Shown here piece by piece: positions 661 to 59,392 of a DNA stretch of 64,000 nucleotides. This DNA is from a virus (lineage: Duplodnaviria; Heunggongvirae; Uroviricota; Caudoviricetes). Both the position numbers and the translations under genes were made by a program. Positions within the stretch are counted from its first letter, which is position 1, and each line of letters opens with the position of its first letter. The notes under the pieces were generated by a model that made no database searches, was not told where the DNA came from, and worked only from the letters and a program-made list of their open reading frames with translations. The stretch is from IMG/VR virus record IMGVR_UViG_2565956726_000008, one strand, 5' to 3'.

Positions 661-1934
661 AAACCGTGAGTAAAGAATTAATTCAGGTTAATACCAAATT
701 AACCGCTAATACCATACGCCGGGAAACGTATAACGGGCGGGAACATATTGTTGTTCCGTCCTACACGTTACCCTTTAACATCGTAATGAACCGGGAATAT
801 TACCCGGAAGCTGAAATTATCGCTAATTACCAGTCACTGGAGGGTACGCTTGCCCCGCTGGGCCATCCTACCGTTGACGGTAAATTTGTTTCAGCATTTA
901 GCCCGGAAGGATTAAACACGGGTTTTTGTGGTGCGTGGAACAGAAACGTTGAGTTACGCGGCAACCGTGTTTATGTGGAAAAATGGGTGGATGTGGAAAC
1001 CGCCAGCCATTCAAGCCAGGGCCGCGAATTATTAGCCAGACTGGAAGCACTGGAGAAAGGAGAAAGCAAAGATCCTATCTGGTCGTCCGTCGCTGTATAT
1101 CGCCAGCGTATGCCAGCCACCGAAAAAATGAAAGCCCAGGGTGCTGACCATGTAGTGAAAATCATGTCGATCGACCATGACGCTATCTTGCTGCATGAGC
1201 CGCCAGCCGCTTCGCCGGAACAGGGCGTAGGCTTAATGGTTAATACCGACCAGGCGAAGCCGTTAATGGCGGTGGCAATGAAAGAAAATAGCTATCGCAC
1301 ACTTGAAAAACAGTTAACCGCTGCCGCGCGGGAAATGTTCCCTGACGCTGATTACGTATACGTGGTGGACTTCACTGATAGAGAGGTGACGATCGCCACT
1401 AATGAAAACTGTGCGGAAAGATACAACTACGAAAAACAGGCTGATAAAATTATTCTCAATAATGGCGAGCTTGCAACCAACGAGGAAAGTAAATCATGGT
1501 TTGCTCAGTTCGCTGAACACCTTTCTAATCTTTTCTCCCTGAATGAAAAAATTAAGGCCAATAAATCGGAGGACGATCCCATGCCTTTGACAAAAGAAGA
1601 ACGCGCCGAACTGGTAAAAGAAATTAACGAAGGCTTATCCGCCAATATCGCTAATGCAGTAGCAGAGGCATTAAAACCAGTACAGGCAAGCGTTGAAGAA
1701 TTACAGACCAATCAGAAAGCGATTAAAGAAGAGATCGCAGCAAACGCAAATAAAGAAGAAGCAGAAAAACGCGCCGCAGTAGCAAAAGTACACGGCGAAA
1801 TTGTTGCTAACGCATTAAGCGGTGAAGCATTAGAGGCAATGTTTAAATCCCTGGGTAAAGCAACTCCGCTAGCCGCCAACACAGCAAGTGAAGACAAAAA
1901 AGGTGAAGTCCCTGACTTTAACACTTATTTCTAA
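651..1934 (+). CDS. capsid scaffold / prohead protease-like protein (DUF2213-type) with C-terminal coiled coil
   Basis: 427-aa ORF (probable real start GTG ~666 after GGGAG); Ala/Glu/Lys-rich coiled-coil tail; position before capsid gene. Confidence 0.45.
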   Translation: MGVKTVSKELIQVNTKLTANTIRRETYNGREHIVVPSYTLPFNIVMNREYYPEAEIIANYQSLEGTLAPLGHPTVDGKFVSAFSPEGLNTGFCGAWNRNVELRGNRVYVEKWVDVETASHSSQGRELLARLEALEKGESKDPIWSSVAVYRQRMPATEKMKAQGADHVVKIMSIDHDAILLHEPPAASPEQGVGLMVNTDQAKPLMAVAMKENSYRTLEKQLTAAAREMFPDADYVYVVDFTDREVTIATNENCAERYNYEKQADKIILNNGELATNEESKSWFAQFAEHLSNLFSLNEKIKANKSEDDPMPLTKEERAELVKEINEGLSANIANAVAEALKPVQASVEELQTNQKAIKEEIAANANKEEAEKRAAVAKVHGEIVANALSGEALEAMFKSLGKATPLAANTASEDKKGEVPDFNTYF

Positions 1935-1948
1935 CTGGAGGGAATACA

Positions 1949-2377
1949 ATGTCTCGTTTTTGTCGTGTAAATATTGATGGTAAATCCATTACCGAAACCT
2001 ACACTGCTAAGGTCGCAGTAAAACCAGGTGAACTGGTAAAACTGGACGGAGGTGAGTTTGCAAAAGCAACCAGTGCTGATGTCGGTGCAGCTCAGTTGTA
2101 CATCGTCAACCCGGCATTCCACGAAGGCAAAACCATTACTGATGCAATCGCTGCAAATGAAACTGTTGTTGCTGATTATGTGGAACAGGGCCGAGAGTTT
2201 GCTCTCCTTGTTCCTGCAGCCGCTTATGTTAAGGGTGCAGCTATTGCTCTCGCAGCCGACGGGGTGAAACTGTTTGTTGCGCCAAGTGAACAGGCAGCGC
2301 CAGATCCGATCATCGCATACTGCCAGGAAGACGTAACCCTGGAAGCGGAAGATTTTATCCGCGTTCGCGTTGCTTAA
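1949..2377 (+). CDS. phage head structural protein (decoration-like)
   Basis: 142-aa ORF with GGAGG RBS between scaffold and major capsid genes. Confidence 0.4.
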   Translation: MSRFCRVNIDGKSITETYTAKVAVKPGELVKLDGGEFAKATSADVGAAQLYIVNPAFHEGKTITDAIAANETVVADYVEQGREFALLVPAAAYVKGAAIALAADGVKLFVAPSEQAAPDPIIAYCQEDVTLEAEDFIRVRVA

Positions 2378-6558: not shown

Positions 6559-6879
6559 TTATGCTATTTTTTCGTAAAGCACATTCATCTGGGTGCGAAT
6601 CACTGTTAATATATTGATTGCTGCGTTCTTATTAATGCGTTTATTCGCTACTATTTTTGTTTTCCCATCAATAACAACCAGATCTGCGTGCAATACATGG
6701 TTGAAGTTGACAATGTAATAATACTGTTTATCGCCAACATGTTGAACATATGCACCATTTAGATTTCCTTTATACCCACAATCACGCTCTGCGACACCGA
6801 AGTCAAATTCGCGGTTCATCTTGCGATTATATGCTACTTGTTTATGTTCCCATTTTCTCATCCATTCATCGCGTTTCAT
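6559..6879 (-). CDS. hypothetical protein, cargo gene 2 of lipoprotein pair
   Basis: 106-aa minus-strand ORF in AT-rich insert; 9-nt gap after the lipoprotein gene. Confidence 0.5.
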   Translation of the reverse strand: MKRDEWMRKWEHKQVAYNRKMNREFDFGVAERDCGYKGNLNGAYVQHVGDKQYYYIVNFNHVLHADLVVIDGKTKIVANKRINKNAAINILTVIRTQMNVLYEKIA

Positions 6880-6888
6880 GTTTCACCC

Positions 6889-7548
6889 TTAATTCCAGTT
6901 GCAAGCGTTTTTCACTTTGTCGATGTGGTTATAAAGACCATCAATGTTAAACACTGCTTTCTCAATGTCGCCAGCTTCCGGCACTGCTTCAATGATAAAT
7001 TGTTTTTCGTTAACCAGTTTTTTAATCATTGGGATGGCTTTTTTGCCGTCCCATAATCCAAGAGCTTTATAATTAGTTGACCGCCACCACTCAGTAGCTA
7101 CAGCTTTGTGATCGCCGATCCGGTAGTTAATATAAGTAGTGTCCCCAGCGTCAGTTACATGGTTTGACCATGCTACGAACATTTTTGTTTTATTACCCTG
7201 GCAAGCGATTGTTAATACAGGTTTGTTTTCATCCCGTGCTTTCAGTGTAGGGAAAGCATCAAGACTTCCGCTGAAATGTTCTGCTTTCACGAAAAGGAAC
7301 ACGTTTTTTGTGTCCTGCATATCATCTTTTCTTTCGACCACAAGCCACTGTTTACCAGCTTTTTCTTTTGCTAACTGTGCCTCATATGCGGCTTGTTTTG
7401 CTTGTTGTTCTGCAAGCCATTTAGCATTTTTCTCTGCTAATGCTTGTTGTTCTTGAGTGGTCACTATAGGCGCTTTTTCATTATCCTCATTGCAACCAAC
7501 CAGACCCAATACCGCCGCAATCATTGCCACTTTTGCTAACCGTTTCAT
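6889..7548 (-). CDS. outer-membrane lipoprotein (signal peptide, lipobox LVGC, Asn at +2), cargo gene
   Basis: N-terminus MKRLAKVAMIAAVLGLVGC-N; coiled-coil stretch then globular C-terminal domain; opposite strand to tail genes. Confidence 0.6.
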   Translation of the reverse strand: MKRLAKVAMIAAVLGLVGCNEDNEKAPIVTTQEQQALAEKNAKWLAEQQAKQAAYEAQLAKEKAGKQWLVVERKDDMQDTKNVFLFVKAEHFSGSLDAFPTLKARDENKPVLTIACQGNKTKMFVAWSNHVTDAGDTTYINYRIGDHKAVATEWWRSTNYKALGLWDGKKAIPMIKKLVNEKQFIIEAVPEAGDIEKAVFNIDGLYNHIDKVKNACNWN

Positions 7549-7675: not shown

Positions 7676-10018
7676 ATGGATACCAGTGTAGGTACAATTT
7701 ATTACGAAGTTGATGCGAAAACTAGTCAACTTCTCGTTGCACAACGACAGGCAGACCAGGCCTTTGGGCGTATAGAGCGCGGCGCAAAACAGGCTGACCG
7801 CCAGGTAAACACCCTGAAAACATCCATCAAGGCACTGACCAGGGTTATCCATTTGCTAATTGCTGCGGAGGCCGTGCGTCAATTCATGGATATGGCGGAG
7901 CAAGCAAAAATGCTTCGCGTAAAAATCAAAATGCTTACGGGCGATGCGGAGTCCGCCGGACGGGTTTTTGATGGCCTGAAAGCAATATCAAAAGAAACAG
8001 GCCAAAGCATGAAGGATACCGGGGATCTGTGGCAAGGCTTAGCTATCTCACTGAAGAACACGTCCGCCACTGAAGGGCAATTGCTTAACCTGGTAGGTAC
8101 GATTCAGAAAATGGGGGCATTAGGCGGCGCGTCAGCGGAACAGATGTCTAACTCAATGCGTCAATTCCGTCAGTCTATCGACGGCGGTGTTCTTCGTGCC
8201 GAAGAATTTAACAGCCTGCTTGAAAATACGCCGACCATCGTACAAACAATGGCCCGCCATATGGGATTATCAATGGGCCAGTTCCGCGCCGAAATGCTGG
8301 ACGGCAAGATCACGGCTGAAAGGATGGTTAACGCAATACAGGCGGCTACGCAGGAAACAAACGATAAGTTTGCTCAGTTGCCGCGCACATCCGGCATGGC
8401 TATCAATGAGCTTAAAGTAGAAATTATGGGCCTTGTTGAGCAGTTGGATGATCTTTTTGGCGTGTCAGATGGCGTTGTTTCAGCTATCGACTTGATCACG
8501 AAAGGCGTTAAAGGGCTTGGCGATGGCGCTAAATTCGCTAAAACCTGCTTCGACACACTCAAAACGGCTGGTAGCGAATTTATCGACATGTTTGATGATG
8601 TGGCTGTTAAGGCTGGAGAGGTGGCAGAGAAGATCATCGCAATGGTGACGCCAATCAAGGCGCTAATGGATGGCTATAAATGGATGAAGGAGGTAGTAGG
8701 AGAGCAAACCGACGAATATAACAGCAACTACGAGAAGAAATACGGGAAGACCGTTGGCAAGGTCATGCAACTACAGGATGATCTGACCGCAGCAATCCAG
8801 GCTACAGAAGAAGCAAGGAAAAATGAACAGAATGCTGCCAATGACGGAGCGATTACCGGATTCGACAAGCCAGTAGACAAGCCGAAAAAACAGAAAAAAG
8901 AGAAGAAATCGGAAGCTGATCGGCTTGGTGACAAAGGTATAAGCGTTTCTGATCAGTACAACAAAGACGCCGCCGCCATGCGCAAAGCGTTGGAGAACGG
9001 CAAGGCCATTGATGCTGCATTTGCCCAGGGTAAAATCACGCTCCTTGAGTACCGCGCCGCGCAAAAAGGGATCGGCAAGGAACTGAAAGAAGAATTAGCA
9101 CAAATTCCGGTAGATGAATTGCGTGATAAATGGTCACAAATAGTAAGCCCGATGGATCAGCTAAAAGGCGAAGTTGACCCCATCCAGCAGGCGCAAAATG
9201 AATGGGCCATCCGTAAGCAAATGCTTATAGACCTGGGCGCTACTGAAGCGCAACAGAAACAGGAATTGTTAGCCTATGAGCAACAGATCCGCGATCTGAA
9301 ATGGGAACAATGGCAGGCGCAAAGCGACACAAACGGCCTTATCGGTGATTGTGTTAATGGCCTTAAAGGCGGAATGAGTAATGCGCTTGTTGGCCTGTTA
9401 AACGGCACTCAATCATTGAGTGATGTTTTTGCTAACTTAGGAAGCAATATACTCGGCAATATCGGTAACAGACTCTCAGACATAGCTGCAAACTGGATAG
9501 CAGATCAGATCATGATGGAGACACAAAGCAAGGCCACGCAAACAAGTACAACAGCAAGCGCGGTAGCAGCTCAGGGAAGCATTGCTGCGGCGGCGGCCCC
9601 AGCAGCGGCGGCAACTGCGGCGTCAACTGGCGGTAGCTGGGCGGCGGCTGGTTCGGCGGCGCTCACTGCGATCATGTCGCTGGCTACGTCAATTTTCGGC
9701 GGCGGTCGCTTTAATGGTGGTAGCGTCATTGGTGGTAATATGTACCGCGTAGGGGAACACAACAGGCCGGAGCTATTCCAGACATCTAACGGCAATCAAT
9801 ATATGATCCCTGGCGAGAACGGCAGAGTTATTCCGGGCCGTGATATTGGCGGCGGTGGCGGTATTAGTATGCCTGTCAGTATCAGCATTCAGACCACGAA
9901 CGGATTCAGCGACGAAGACAGCCGCAGACTTGAATTAACAATGGAACGTGTAGCCATGAAAATGATAACAAGGGAATCTCAAAGACCAGGCGGAATGTTG
10001 CAACCTCGCCGCAAATAA
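7676..10018 (+). CDS. tail tape measure protein (prophage A)
   Basis: 780 aa, alpha-helical, Gly/Ala-rich C-terminal region; position before M. Confidence 0.8.
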   Translation: MDTSVGTIYYEVDAKTSQLLVAQRQADQAFGRIERGAKQADRQVNTLKTSIKALTRVIHLLIAAEAVRQFMDMAEQAKMLRVKIKMLTGDAESAGRVFDGLKAISKETGQSMKDTGDLWQGLAISLKNTSATEGQLLNLVGTIQKMGALGGASAEQMSNSMRQFRQSIDGGVLRAEEFNSLLENTPTIVQTMARHMGLSMGQFRAEMLDGKITAERMVNAIQAATQETNDKFAQLPRTSGMAINELKVEIMGLVEQLDDLFGVSDGVVSAIDLITKGVKGLGDGAKFAKTCFDTLKTAGSEFIDMFDDVAVKAGEVAEKIIAMVTPIKALMDGYKWMKEVVGEQTDEYNSNYEKKYGKTVGKVMQLQDDLTAAIQATEEARKNEQNAANDGAITGFDKPVDKPKKQKKEKKSEADRLGDKGISVSDQYNKDAAAMRKALENGKAIDAAFAQGKITLLEYRAAQKGIGKELKEELAQIPVDELRDKWSQIVSPMDQLKGEVDPIQQAQNEWAIRKQMLIDLGATEAQQKQELLAYEQQIRDLKWEQWQAQSDTNGLIGDCVNGLKGGMSNALVGLLNGTQSLSDVFANLGSNILGNIGNRLSDIAANWIADQIMMETQSKATQTSTTASAVAAQGSIAAAAAPAAAATAASTGGSWAAAGSAALTAIMSLATSIFGGGRFNGGSVIGGNMYRVGEHNRPELFQTSNGNQYMIPGENGRVIPGRDIGGGGGISMPVSISIQTTNGFSDEDSRRLELTMERVAMKMITRESQRPGGMLQPRRK

Positions 10019-10025
10019 ACTAAAT

Positions 10026-10050
10026 CCCGGTGCAATGCCGGGGTTATTTT
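10026..10050 (+). terminator. rho-independent terminator after tape measure gene
   Basis: Hairpin cccgg-tgcaatg-ccggg plus T-run; near-copy of the 3479 hairpin. Confidence 0.5.
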
Positions 10051-10104: not shown

Positions 10105-10359
10105 TCACTTATGAGTGCCTTTCACGCCACATAACTTGTTATAGGCATGGTGCTCAACAATTAACCAAACCTTCAAATCTTCGCTAAACAGCCTCCAATC
10201 AAGATTGATATCCATTTTGTATCCGTAACCGTCGCGTAACTTTTTGGGGTAAACTTCTTTTCTCAGAAAGGCTTTAAGTAATTCCTTACCTTTCTTGATG
10301 ATCCGGTCCTGTGCGTTTTTCTGTGCTTTCAGATTTCTGTCAATCGCTACCAGTTTCAT
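10105..10359 (-). CDS. RelE/ParE-fold toxin-like protein (candidate)
   Basis: 84 aa, basic; C-terminal pattern DWRLF...VWLIVEHHAY resembles RelE/ParE family; second gene of two-gene operon. Confidence 0.4.
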   Translation of the reverse strand: MKLVAIDRNLKAQKNAQDRIIKKGKELLKAFLRKEVYPKKLRDGYGYKMDINLDWRLFSEDLKVWLIVEHHAYNKLCGVKGTHK

Positions 10360-10376
10360 AACTCACCCCATCATCC

Positions 10377-10532
10377 TTAGTTAAGTGCCTTCAGGAAGAA
10401 GTCCCGGTATTCATCTTCTTTCGCATTCATCATGAATTGACCGTATTTGAATGCGTCGTCGAAACCCTTAACGATTGCTATTTCCACTTGTTCGAATGCG
10501 TTATTTAGCATTACTACTACATAGCGTTTCAT
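10377..10532 (-). CDS. small acidic partner protein (candidate antitoxin)
   Basis: 51-aa ORF below the ORF-track size cut-off; AGGAGG RBS; stop 18 nt before the toxin-like start. Confidence 0.35.
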   Translation of the reverse strand: MKRYVVVMLNNAFEQVEIAIVKGFDDAFKYGQFMMNAKEDEYRDFFLKALN

Positions 10533-10623
10533 TTTGGGCCTCCTTCGTTGGTACTACTTTCTTCTTGCTTTCTATATACATCTTGTTGCGTGCTATGTGA
10601 AGCCATTTTGTAAACTAGCTATA

Positions 10624-10640
10624 ATCATTGTGACAATGAT
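10624..10640. promoter_or_regulatory. 17-bp perfect palindrome ATCATTGTGACAATGAT upstream of the TA-like operon (candidate operator)
   Basis: Read directly from sequence; about 90 bp upstream of the operon start. Confidence 0.4.
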
Positions 10641-10699
10641 CTTATTTTTCGCGTAGAAGCGCGTAAAGATATATACAAAATGTAACTTGTGGGGGTTTT

Positions 10700-11053
10700 A
10701 TGCCGGAAGTGTTCAGATGGACGCCGCAAAGAAGCTACAGCGTGACCAGGAAGCCAGACGTATCTGTTGTTAAGCTGGGCGATGGTTATGAGCAAAGACA
10801 GGTAAAAGGTATCAATCCATTGCTTGATAGCTACACCCTGGTGTTTAAAGGCAGTAGCGCCGGATGTGGTGATGGTGGAAACGTAGCAATCCAGGCGGAA
10901 GCATTCTTGAGGGCGCGCGGCGCGGTCGAGGCTTTTTACTGGTCGCCGTCAATGGATAACGTGCAAAGGCTTTTTGTCTGTCGGCAATGGAGCATGACTA
11001 AAGACGGGCCTTTGTACACGCTAAACGCAACGTTTGAGCAAGTTGTTGGCTAA
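10700..11053 (+). CDS. minor tail protein M (lambda gpM-like)
   Basis: 117 aa; GDGYEQR and C-terminal FEQVV motifs shared with lambda M. Confidence 0.8.
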   Translation: MPEVFRWTPQRSYSVTRKPDVSVVKLGDGYEQRQVKGINPLLDSYTLVFKGSSAGCGDGGNVAIQAEAFLRARGAVEAFYWSPSMDNVQRLFVCRQWSMTKDGPLYTLNATFEQVVG

Positions 11054-11406: not shown

Positions 11407-11655
11407 CTATAAGTTATCACGCAGATAATTAACGCCCTTATCAGTGACGAATGAATGGTTAACCTGGTTTTCATCCGTCATGATGATGAATAACTTTTCA
11501 TGTAGGTATTTCGCTTTCGGGTACAGCGTTAAACAGACCTGGTACAGTATCCCGCGCTCAATCAGCAAATCAATAAATTCGTGTTCATGATAACCGATGA
11601 GGCGGGCGGCCTGTTTCAACGTGTACACATAATCACCGTGATTGCGCCGCCCCAT
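11407..11655 (-). CDS. small HTH protein, gene 3 of M|L cassette
   Basis: 82 aa; helix-turn-helix-like stretch YTLKQAARLIGYHEHEFIDLLIERGIL. Confidence 0.45.
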   Translation of the reverse strand: MGRRNHGDYVYTLKQAARLIGYHEHEFIDLLIERGILYQVCLTLYPKAKYLHEKLFIIMTDENQVNHSFVTDKGVNYLRDNL

Positions 11656-11664
11656 GTTGCCGCC

Positions 11665-12012
11665 TTATTTATCGAATGCTGAAAGGTTATCGATACAGAA
11701 ATCTTTCGCCGCTTTTTCGTATTCGCGTTTTGCTTCTGGATCGTCAGCCGGGAAACCTTTTGCGTGTATTTCACCAGGGCAAGACTGGTCCATAGAATCT
11801 GCATAATAAGCAGTGAAGCTACCATTAATATCTTTCGGGTTCATATCTTCCACCTCATCAACTATCTGTACCGGATTAGCAGCATATTTCACTGGATGGC
11901 CTAAACTACATTCAAGAATCCTGCCTTCTTCCAGGGCTACTTCTTCGCTATCAAATAATCCGAAACACTCCTTGCTACCACTTAACCACACATCAAGACT
12001 GTATTTTTTCAT
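11665..12012 (-). CDS. hypothetical acidic protein, gene 2 of M|L cassette
   Basis: 115 aa from internal ATG with GAGG RBS (track ORF runs to 12114). Confidence 0.45.
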   Translation of the reverse strand: MKKYSLDVWLSGSKECFGLFDSEEVALEEGRILECSLGHPVKYAANPVQIVDEVEDMNPKDINGSFTAYYADSMDQSCPGEIHAKGFPADDPEAKREYEKAAKDFCIDNLSAFDK

Positions 12013-12181
12013 TTTTGTTAGCCTCATATTTGACAGGTTCGATCTGGTATCCCAAAAGGCGGTCATCCTCAGCAAGTAAAAGCGCGTCAACCAATGCTTC
12101 ACCCTCGTCGTCATACAGGGCGATAACCTTTTCCCTACCGTCTGTCATGAATACCGTCAACTTCCATAGCTTTTCAGTCAT
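11993..12181 (-). CDS. hypothetical small protein, gene 1 of M|L cassette
   Basis: 62 aa from ATG MTEKLWK (track ORF runs to 12301 from a TTG). Confidence 0.4.
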   Translation of the reverse strand: MTEKLWKLTVFMTDGREKVIALYDDEGEALVDALLLAEDDRLLGYQIEPVKYEANKNEKIQS

Positions 12182-21727: not shown

Positions 21728-22102
21728 GTGTACCAAATAGTGACCAAATATCAAAAACTAAAATCAAAAACAACATAACATTATGTTTTATAAATGATTA
21801 TTCGTTACACTAATCATTCCAGACAGGACTGGTGAGTAAGTCCAGGGTATTGAAGTTGTGCGTAATCATTGAGATCCCGTTATTTTTATCAATTTTTGTT
21901 GCTATCCGATCGCAAAAAAGCCACGTCATATGATCAGATAATTCTGATAATGATAGACGCTATTTAACACTTCACACGGTTTGTATATGGAAAAGCATTT
22001 TGCTTTTTGTATTCAATTTAGACAGAATTTTATTAATCATTTCAGGGTAATGGGGTGATGAGATGTTGCGTAACAGGGCCAGAAGGCTAGACTACAAAAT
22101 AA

Positions 22103-23107
<1,005 letters not shown>

Positions 23108-27526: not shown

Positions 27527-27604
27527 CGCATCACCTCTGGCAGGCGCCAATGTTAGACTGAAATTGACGCCCGATGTTGATTATTAATAATCAGCTATGA
27601 AGTT

Positions 27605-38623: not shown

Positions 38624-39397
38624 TTAGAACTGTTCATTGCCATCGAGGTTAGGTAGCATAATTTTTTCAATCAAGGCGAGAGCCTTTTTGTCCCGGTCAG
38701 CGAAGTATTTCGGGGCATATTGCGGCAACCAAATATTGTTAAAATGTTCTTTGAAATCTGCTAAATATTCATTTGGGTACAGCCTTGCAGGGTATACGCG
38801 ACCATCGGGATATTCATGGTCATAGGTAGGGAATGTTTTGGGTTCTACGTTTCTATTATCTCTTAACCATTGTGAAAATACTCTTCCTTGTGAAATGTCA
38901 GGAACCATTTTTTCTGGGAGTGTGTACCCTGCTTGTTCAAGAGGTGCAACCAAGTTGAATGTCAGTTCATTAAGAATAGAAAAGTGCGTGTGAGGAATTC
39001 TACTACGATTAACCATGTACCGTTTTAAATGTACAGGCATTTCTGCTGTAGTTCTTTCCCCTGACATCCATTCACGAACCCATCTTGAAACCTGGACTGC
39101 AAATTTGGGCGATAGCCACTGCGCTAGATTAATAGCGATGTCAGGATGCACCCATGTCCCTTGGTTTTCAGGTCTTCCACCTTTAAATGATTGAATTAAC
39201 TCCGATATGGGAATTCCCATATCGCGTGATAATTCGTCAAAAAACTCTTGAGTAGTTTTGAGTCTAGTGTAATCAGAGAGCAGTTTGCCCGCAGTTCTAC
39301 ACATTGATGTGGCGTTTATGTAACCATCTTTGGCACGTAAATGTATTATTTCGCCGTCAATTTCACGAGAAATCAAAGATAATTGAAAGGATGTCAT
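38624..39397 (-). CDS. KilA-N domain protein (antirepressor-like)
   Basis: 257 aa; N-terminal KilA-N-like region (GEIIHLRAKDGYINATSMCR). Confidence 0.55.
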   Translation of the reverse strand: MTSFQLSLISREIDGEIIHLRAKDGYINATSMCRTAGKLLSDYTRLKTTQEFFDELSRDMGIPISELIQSFKGGRPENQGTWVHPDIAINLAQWLSPKFAVQVSRWVREWMSGERTTAEMPVHLKRYMVNRSRIPHTHFSILNELTFNLVAPLEQAGYTLPEKMVPDISQGRVFSQWLRDNRNVEPKTFPTYDHEYPDGRVYPARLYPNEYLADFKEHFNNIWLPQYAPKYFADRDKKALALIEKIMLPNLDGNEQF

Positions 39398-59084: not shown

Positions 59085-59392
59085 CCGCCCAGCGGTGGTT
59101 ATCGGAGTTCGGGGGAGAAAGGGGGGAAAAGGCAAGATGGAAGCGAGAAAAACTCAGGTTGCCACCGATACCGGAACCAGAAATAGACCCGGTGCTTAAG
59201 GAATTGTTGTACGCCTATTCGGTAATATCCCGTGCCCGACGTTATGCTGGAATGACCGGGGTGCCTTTGCCTTTATCTCTGACAGAGATAAATGAATATT
59301 TAGCCACTCATCCGGTATTGATTGAGCGCGATGAGTTTGAAGCAGTGATCTTTGCACTGGATGACCAGTATTTTCAGGAGCAGTGTGTGTAG
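59048..59392 (+). CDS. T-domain reading frame of G-T fusion reached by -1 frameshift
   Basis: -1 frame is open from ~59048 through 59392 and overlaps the G 3' end; lambda G/GT analogy. Confidence 0.55.
   Translation, partial: RAAEAGYDKKAIAAQRWLSEFGGERGEKARWKREKLRLPPIPEPEIDPVLKELLYAYSVISRARRYAGMTGVPLPLSLTEINEYLATHPVLIERDEFEAVIFALDDQYFQEQCV
59072..59078 (+). other. programmed -1 ribosomal frameshift heptamer A_AAA_AAG
   Basis: Heptamer sits in the G frame as A AAA AAG, the same slippery sequence as in dnaX. Confidence 0.5.

Follow-up and report, generated by a model that had tools for sequence, protein, structure and literature searches.

The gene pair A51 and T84, carried on the minus strand at the tape-measure/M junction of an Escherichia coli prophage, is read here, tentatively, as a prophage moron operon that encodes a ParE-like effector (T84) and a dispensable partner (A51). 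The pair had been described in a first-pass annotation as a toxin-antitoxin (TA)-like operon with a palindromic operator. An ordinary accessory operon, rather than a classical addiction module, is preferred because relatives keep T84 without A51 and because the palindrome is unconserved and compatible with chance.

In the preferred model, the pair is a conserved moron of mEp021-type temperate coliphages: a separate transcription unit of accessory genes, inserted in antisense orientation where the tape-measure gene is followed by tail gene M. The operon would be expressed in the lysogen, probably from a sigma-70-type promoter in the M-proximal spacer of about 170 bp (the candidate is TTCACA-17-TATATA), and its transcript would end at a bidirectional terminator behind the tape-measure gene. 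T84 would be the effector, a small protein of RelE/ParE-superfamily type that acts on a nucleic-acid-associated target, with gyrase and ribosome-bound mRNA as candidates. A51 would be its co-transcribed partner, and may bind and temper T84. A partnership of a toxin-antitoxin-like kind, with a putative TA function, is possible.

Layout of the operon and elements of its spacer

The window (the whole stretch of DNA that was analyzed, 64 kb in length) represents an mEp021-type E. coli prophage. Prophages of ten complete E. coli genomes match the region at 99.3-99.9% identity, and the temperate phages mEp021, mEp554, mEp010, mEp044, mEp013 and mEp515, as well as phage MagusPhagus, match it at 82-95%. 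Judging from the annotated copy in strain M1/5, the structural arm of the prophage fills the window to about 21.8 kb, with host genes beyond. This prophage end (window ~21760-22230) adjoins zntB, and the host chromosome past it includes dbpA, ttcA, an integrase remnant, ompN, nifJ, ldhA, ydbH and a large autotransporter gene. The paper describing the mEp021-group genomes does not mention ParE or discuss TA genes.

Both minus-strand open reading frames (ORFs) that the first-pass annotation placed at the H-M junction are present (Table 1), as is the AGGAGG ribosome binding site of A51, which relatives keep as GGAGG or GGGGG. The gap between the genes, given earlier as 18 nt, measures 17 nt (10376-10360). 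Each gene has its own ribosome binding site. Two adjacent, co-transcribed small genes are a feature of type II TA systems, and a classical system of that type is an alternative that we regard as unlikely. T84 would then be a ParE/RelE-type toxin and A51 a labile proteic antitoxin that neutralizes it by binding; the complex would autoregulate the operon, perhaps via the palindrome, and the prophage would be stabilized or infection by other phages aborted. Gene order, gene sizes and a spacing of 17-24 nt are kept in all loci carrying both genes, as that explanation would have it, and the position typical of a moron suits it as well.

Table 1. Positions of the A51-T84 operon, its neighbors and the spacer elements in the window, and of example PF24732 genes in other loci
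Feature	Position	Strand	Remarks
A51, 51-aa ORF	10377-10532	-	First gene of the operon
T84, 84-aa ORF	10105-10359	-	Second gene of the operon
Ribosome binding site of A51, AGGAGG	10544-10539	-	6 nt upstream of the A51 ATG; identified by inspection of the sequence
Ribosome binding site of T84, GGGGTGAG	10369-10362	-	Inside the 17-nt gap; identified by inspection of the sequence
Tape-measure gene	7676-10018	+	Pfam TMP_3
Tail gene M	10700-11053		Phage_min_tail; begins 167 nt past the A51 start
Hairpin terminator	10023-10045	both	Common to the tape-measure gene (+) and the A51-T84 operon (-); terminator scan
Candidate sigma-70 promoter of the operon	TTCACA 10601-10596, TATATA 10578-10573	-	17-nt spacer; manual reading
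TATAAT, possible -10 for downstream tail genes	10620-10625	+	Faces gene M
Palindrome ATCATTGTGACAATGAT	10624-10640		Perfect 8+1+8, 17 bp; 91 nt from the A51 ATG
PF24732 gene, SGI4 (locus L112)	1801-2049		
PF24732 gene, Pantoea plasmid (locus L013)	1501-1749		
PF24732 gene, phage Sortsne (locus L010)	1489-1710		

Two further antisense insertions occur in the same tail cluster. The first, a moron at 11407-12181 (minus strand), lies between M (plus a 65-aa ORF) and L, and encodes 62-aa, 115-aa and 82-aa KilAC-domain proteins. Over 52 residues, the 62-aa protein and the N-terminal part of the 115-aa protein share 35% identity, an indication that a small domain has been duplicated; no paralogy was detected between A51 and the first small gene of this moron. 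The second insertion, at 6559-7548 (minus strand) between a tail-assembly gene and the tape-measure gene, consists of a 219-aa lipoprotein-like ORF, labeled "type VI secretion system-associated protein TagO" in RefSeq, and a 106-aa ORF.

The downstream boundary of the A51-T84 operon is marked by the hairpin behind the tape-measure gene, a position at which the records of mEp phages also have an annotated terminator. At the other end, a consensus promoter scan found no site in 10533-10699; the candidate TTCACA-17-TATATA falls below its threshold and does not have the final T of a -10 element. Among 42 unique intergenic sequences, the TTCAC (10597-10601) and TGTATA (10575-10580) blocks are at least 95% conserved, with a variable spacer between them, a pattern consistent with a role for this candidate as the operon promoter. 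Alternative minus-strand promoters were rejected (for example TTTACG-17-TAAGAT, which overlaps the palindrome), as their -10 is not conserved in relatives. Repeats common to the leaders of this moron and the M-L moron (D1 and D6) were likewise set aside as chance matches, their order being inverted between the leaders.

The plus strand of the spacer may carry signals of its own. In the 42 unique relatives, conservation within the spacer is highest at two elements, the direct repeat CGCGTA-N4-CGCGTA (10650-10665) and the plus-strand TATAAT, which is at least 95% conserved and does not vary in the aligned sequences displayed. TATAAT could be the -10 element of a promoter for the tail genes from M on; its only -35 candidate is poor (GTGAAG, 3/6). 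Together, the repeat and TATAAT may constitute a promoter or regulator site for these downstream tail genes.

The palindrome reported about 90 bp upstream of the pair is real and perfect, but its interpretation as a TA autoregulatory operator is not supported. It is perfect in 12 of 49 related loci, all belonging to one near-identical clade that contains the window. In the other lineages, the 8-bp arms have 3-5 mismatches, and the region reads, on the operon strand, ATCTTCATCACAATGAT, AACTTCGTCACAAGAAT or AAATTCATCACAAGAAT. The palindrome columns are conserved at 0.85, against an intergenic mean of 0.89, and the left arm is among the most variable stretches. A first-order Markov simulation leads one to expect about 1.1 perfect 8+1+8 palindromes per 64 kb, against 3 in the window; when loops of 0-4 nt are allowed, the window has 10 and the simulation gives 5.7 +/- 3.0. 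Further perfect palindromes, 16-20 bp long, lie at 39204-39223, 59273-59291, 9406-9422 and 27578-27593 (for example GATATGGGAATTCCCATATC) and entered the analysis as background to this chance estimate. Relative to the candidate minus-strand transcription start, the palindrome lies at -58 to -74, which is not an operator position for the candidate minus-strand promoter. These comparisons point to a coincidence peculiar to one lineage; in all probability, the palindrome does not serve as an operator.

A variant of the operator hypothesis places the site on the other strand. The palindrome would then be a genuine regulatory site, an operator acquired by this lineage at a promoter for tail genes M onward. 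It is centered at 10632, 7 nt past the conserved TATAAT, where operators are classically found, and it overlaps the end of TATAAT and the expected start site. However, about one such palindrome per window is expected by chance, this one is found in a single near-identical clade, and no second copy within 2 mismatches occurs in the 64-kb window. Given, in addition, the poor -35 and the lack of an identified candidate binding protein, we consider a plus-strand operator very improbable.

The T84 and A51 proteins

T84 matches the Pfam family PF24732 (ParE_like) over residues 19-75 (E = 9e-12, 45.3 bits against a cutoff of 24.4), and all 13 diverse family members tested match the same model. It also matches PHROG 1525, a family of unknown function, and RefSeq already names it "ParE family toxin-like protein". 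The RelE/ParE-like appearance of its C-terminus, remarked on in the first-pass annotation, is therefore borne out as far as PF24732 is concerned, but does not extend to the canonical families: the Pfam models of ParE (PF05016), RelE, YoeB, HigB and YafQ gave no match at E <= 10 with any of the 13 family members, and no toxin family other than PF24732 was matched at that threshold by T84 and twelve diverse relatives. Sequence and profile searches of PDB chains with the T84 family found no match, the sole weak profile hit reflecting an Asp-box-like S-x-D-x-G-x-T-W motif that many PF24732 proteins carry. Searches of PADLOC, NCBIfam and Rfam yielded nothing. Membership of T84 in PF24732 is established by these searches; its place in the canonical ParE/RelE superfamily goes no further than the Pfam name. 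The Pfam match would be in keeping with a classical type II TA system, whereas the missing similarity to canonical ParE, RelE and YoeB models and the lack of a PADLOC match count against one.

Six residues are invariant across distant T84 relatives (W55, R56, S59, D61, W65 and H70), and the S-x-D...W part of the family resembles an Asp-box hairpin. The conserved R56 and H70, together with Y73, are suggestive, and only suggestive, of the activities of that superfamily, which are poisoning of gyrase for ParE and cleavage of mRNA on the ribosome for RelE. The AlphaFold model of T84, of low confidence (pLDDT 60.5), comprises a long helix, three strands and a short helix; this is the order of elements expected of a RelE/ParE fold, in which helices from the N-terminus pack against an antiparallel sheet of three or four strands, but the model is too poor to confirm the fold. 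By eye, the W-R...H..Y pattern aligns with the core of YoeB/RelE, but hhalign comparisons of the T84 family with single RelE, YoeB and RK2 ParE sequences (which were not database copies) gave probabilities below 1%, which are not significant.

A51 is more isolated still. It matches only phrog_29810, a family of unknown function, and no match was found in Pfam, NCBIfam, PADLOC or the PDB, nor any ribbon-helix-helix (RHH), helix-turn-helix (HTH) or other recognizable domain, in agreement with the earlier remark that the upstream protein does not look like a standard RHH/HTH antitoxin. RefSeq labels it "hypothetical protein", and its predicted structure is a single long helix, of doubtful meaning. 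A search of 1.84 billion proteins returned only 5 true representatives of the family at 50% identity, and an exhaustive profile search recovered the same narrow family plus one spurious repeat protein. Word-indexed homologue searches with A51, T84 and Sortsne gp07 found close relatives only. By these searches, A51 is an orphan family confined to the mEp021-type phage group. Without a DNA-binding domain in A51 or a conserved operator upstream, the locus does not have the DNA-binding antitoxin and conserved operator of a classical type II TA system.

The charges of the two proteins are complementary. T84 is strongly basic (pI 9.9, charge +9.8), as first described; A51 is acidic, but mildly so (pI 5.1, charge -1.5). 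An acidic protein paired with a basic one is in line with a type II TA system and, more generally, favors a partnership between A51 and T84.

Linkage, loss and selection of the two genes

The comparison covered, in overlapping sets, the window itself, 9 annotated loci, and loci collected by way of T84 (39) or of A51 (44); the sources were phage records, E. coli genomes and IMG/VR. A51 and T84 are real genes under strong purifying selection, with dN/dS values of 0.054 and 0.061, respectively, on a par with the 0.060 of the essential tail protein M. T84 lies 17-24 nt downstream of A51 in 44 of 44 loci recruited through A51, and in these loci A51 is never seen without a downstream T84. In every related phage or prophage examined that carries both, the pair comes first in the antisense unit at the tape-measure/M junction. 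The content behind T84 differs among mEp021, mEp554, mEp010, mEp013, mEp515, MagusPhagus and E. coli prophages: there is nothing in the window, and elsewhere there are small ORFs, an HNH endonuclease, a zinc-ribbon protein or a 436-aa protein. Because this cargo varies between relatives, the site appears to be a moron hot spot, and an insertion at this junction that has a terminator of its own and differs in content is what a moron should look like. In many relatives, a 30-aa ORF (MNDDKFTWREIWNIWQVMFARSYIARNGRL) begins 8-10 nt after the T84 stop and is followed by a 56-59-aa ORF (e.g. L032 1755-1850); both are absent from the window, where T84 runs straight to the terminator.

The constant presence of T84 behind A51 would be expected of a type II TA pair, but the linkage could reflect synteny within one phage group and not function. 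Identical A51 proteins occur with T84 variants of 67-100% identity, and there is therefore no co-variation between them. It may be that the operon simply holds two functionally independent small moron genes on one transcript, T84 being a non-toxic nucleic-acid-binding or regulatory protein of mobile elements and A51 being unrelated to it. The free reshuffling of A51 and T84 variants by recombination fits such independence, as does the fact that each gene is dispensable in some natural genome. The tight and conserved order and spacing of the genes, the restriction of A51 to the slot directly upstream of T84, their complementary charges and the alignment by eye with the YoeB/RelE core all speak against it, and we judge it unlikely, if slightly less so than a classical type II system.

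The preferred moron reading, with A51 as a dispensable partner, draws on genomes in which T84 occurs without an intact A51. Intact T84 without any A51 gene occurs in E. coli UMNK88 and in the IMG/VR contig L032, from a metagenomic phage; in both, the A51 gene is missing and T84 is joined directly to the same leader. The IMG/VR locus L035 is identical to the UMNK88 locus over the T84 gene and leader. Every residue state of the L032 protein is also found in A51-linked T84 proteins, and there is no sign of an attenuating substitution in the solitary genes. Between the two T84 genes that lack A51, 7 codons differ by synonymous changes only and 2 by amino-acid changes, and T84 is therefore still under selection without A51. 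Additionally, A51 is frameshifted at codon 5 in strain MFDS1019527 and near codon 33, in an A-run, in GCA_003357765.1, beside an intact T84 in each. Both frameshifted alleles could be assembly errors, whereas the UMNK88 case cannot. In a classical type II system, a toxin is not expected to be kept intact without its antitoxin, and the maintenance of intact T84 without A51 in nature argues that this is not a strict, addiction-type TA pair. The obligatory link between toxin and antidote implied by the first-pass annotation is accordingly left without support.

Disrupted alleles are, on the other hand, commoner in T84 (P0091-P0097, strains PAR and Ecol_244) than in A51, which is intact in PAR and Ecol_244, where T84 is disrupted. 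This would be the expected direction if toxins decay first, but several of the T84 frameshifts fall at a C4A5 run and may be sequencing errors. The run, within T84 at 10241-10249 (TTTTTGGGG, plus strand), is the site, or close to the site, of the frameshifts in alleles P0092, P0093 and P0096, which could represent either real, phase-variation-like decay or sequencing error.

PF24732 relatives and known systems

Outside this phage group, PF24732 genes belong to the conserved backbone of SGI4- and ICEclc-type elements, where they lie between a BisC-like DUF2857 gene and a STY4528-family gene. The same order, with the PF24732 gene after the DUF2857 gene and before the STY4528-family gene, is found in SGI4 (where the first two genes overlap) and in Pantoea and Citrobacter plasmids, and the PF24732 gene is translationally coupled to the DUF2857 gene in SGI4 and the Pantoea plasmids. 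DUF2857 corresponds to the BisC subunit of BisDC, the master activator of ICEclc (PMC7423338). Sortsnevirus phages have the PF24732 gene coupled to one for a 115-125-aa protein, upstream of the lysis cassette or holin. Strings of overlapping genes are the setting of the PF24732 gene in a Klebsiella plasmid and in prophage regions of Kosakonia, Superficieibacter and Pseudescherichia.

The copies from integrative and conjugative elements (ICEs) and plasmids (SGI4, Pantoea) and from Sortsnevirus phages belong to the same Pfam family as T84 and have the invariant W-R, S-x-D...W and H in common with it. They are 73-82 aa long and 25-37% identical to T84, and they follow a BisC-like DUF2857 gene or the 115-125-aa phage gene rather than an A51-like gene. 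No antitoxin-like neighbor of a PF24732 gene was found in the ICEs, plasmids or Sortsnevirus phages examined, which counts against a classical type II toxin. By contrast, the occurrence of PF24732 in regulatory or early ICE operons, coupled to the BisC-like gene, and in strings of overlapping early-type genes in enterobacterial prophages is what one would anticipate if T84 were a non-toxic regulatory protein independent of A51. The literature is in keeping with such a role as well: searches on PF24732, the RefSeq protein accessions and the RefSeq product name found no papers and no report of toxicity.

A more speculative possibility, which we think quite unlikely, is that A51 and T84 form a new kind of pair for prophage defense or exclusion. 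In this view, PF24732 would be a novel branch of RelE/YoeB-like ribonucleases, with T84 acting through R56, H70 and Y73, and A51 would represent a new family of inhibitors, free of any DNA-binding domain, that restrains T84 until another phage infects. More broadly, PF24732 proteins may perhaps be a distinct, non-addiction class of small effectors or regulators common to BisDC-type ICE operons, phage-plasmids and phages. If the pair were a working TA or defense module, it would define a new antitoxin family and provide the first function for PF24732, whose members occur in coliphages, phage-plasmids and ICE backbones. As matters stand, the value of the locus is mostly cautionary. The RefSeq "ParE-like toxin" label rests on the family name, and no experimental report was found; natural genomes tolerate T84 without its supposed antidote, and a textbook-looking operator palindrome appears to be a chance feature of one lineage.

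Among known systems, the type II operons ParDE and RelBE offer one comparison, in that a small upstream acidic gene is closely followed by a small basic gene with a ParE-like Pfam domain on a mobile element. However, T84 has no HMM similarity to PF05016 ParE, RelE, YoeB or HigB, A51 has no RHH, Phd or HTH domain, there is no conserved operator, and T84 is tolerated without its partner. Another is the PaaR2-PaaA2-ParE2 system of E. coli O157:H7 prophages, in which the antitoxin of a ParE-type protein is reportedly very small and without a DNA-binding domain (PDB 5CW7). A51-T84 is similar in combining a prophage-borne ParE-like protein with a very small partner of this kind. It differs in that the third gene, paaR2, which serves regulation, has no counterpart at the A51-T84 locus, and neither A51 nor T84 has a sequence match to any PDB chain, ParE2 and PaaA2 included.

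In its organization, the operon is comparable to the morons found in phage tail-gene clusters, such as lambda lom and bor and HK97 gp15. Like these, it stands apart as a unit that has a terminator and probably a promoter of its own, located between conserved, adjacent tail genes and variable in its cargo, although the products come from different families and A51-T84 is known here from sequence. Finally, the T4 endoribonuclease RegB, which has a RelE/YoeB-like fold, is encoded by its phage without an antitoxin. It is a precedent for a solitary RelE-superfamily protein in a phage and, by way of analogy only, a parallel to the partner-less PF24732 genes.
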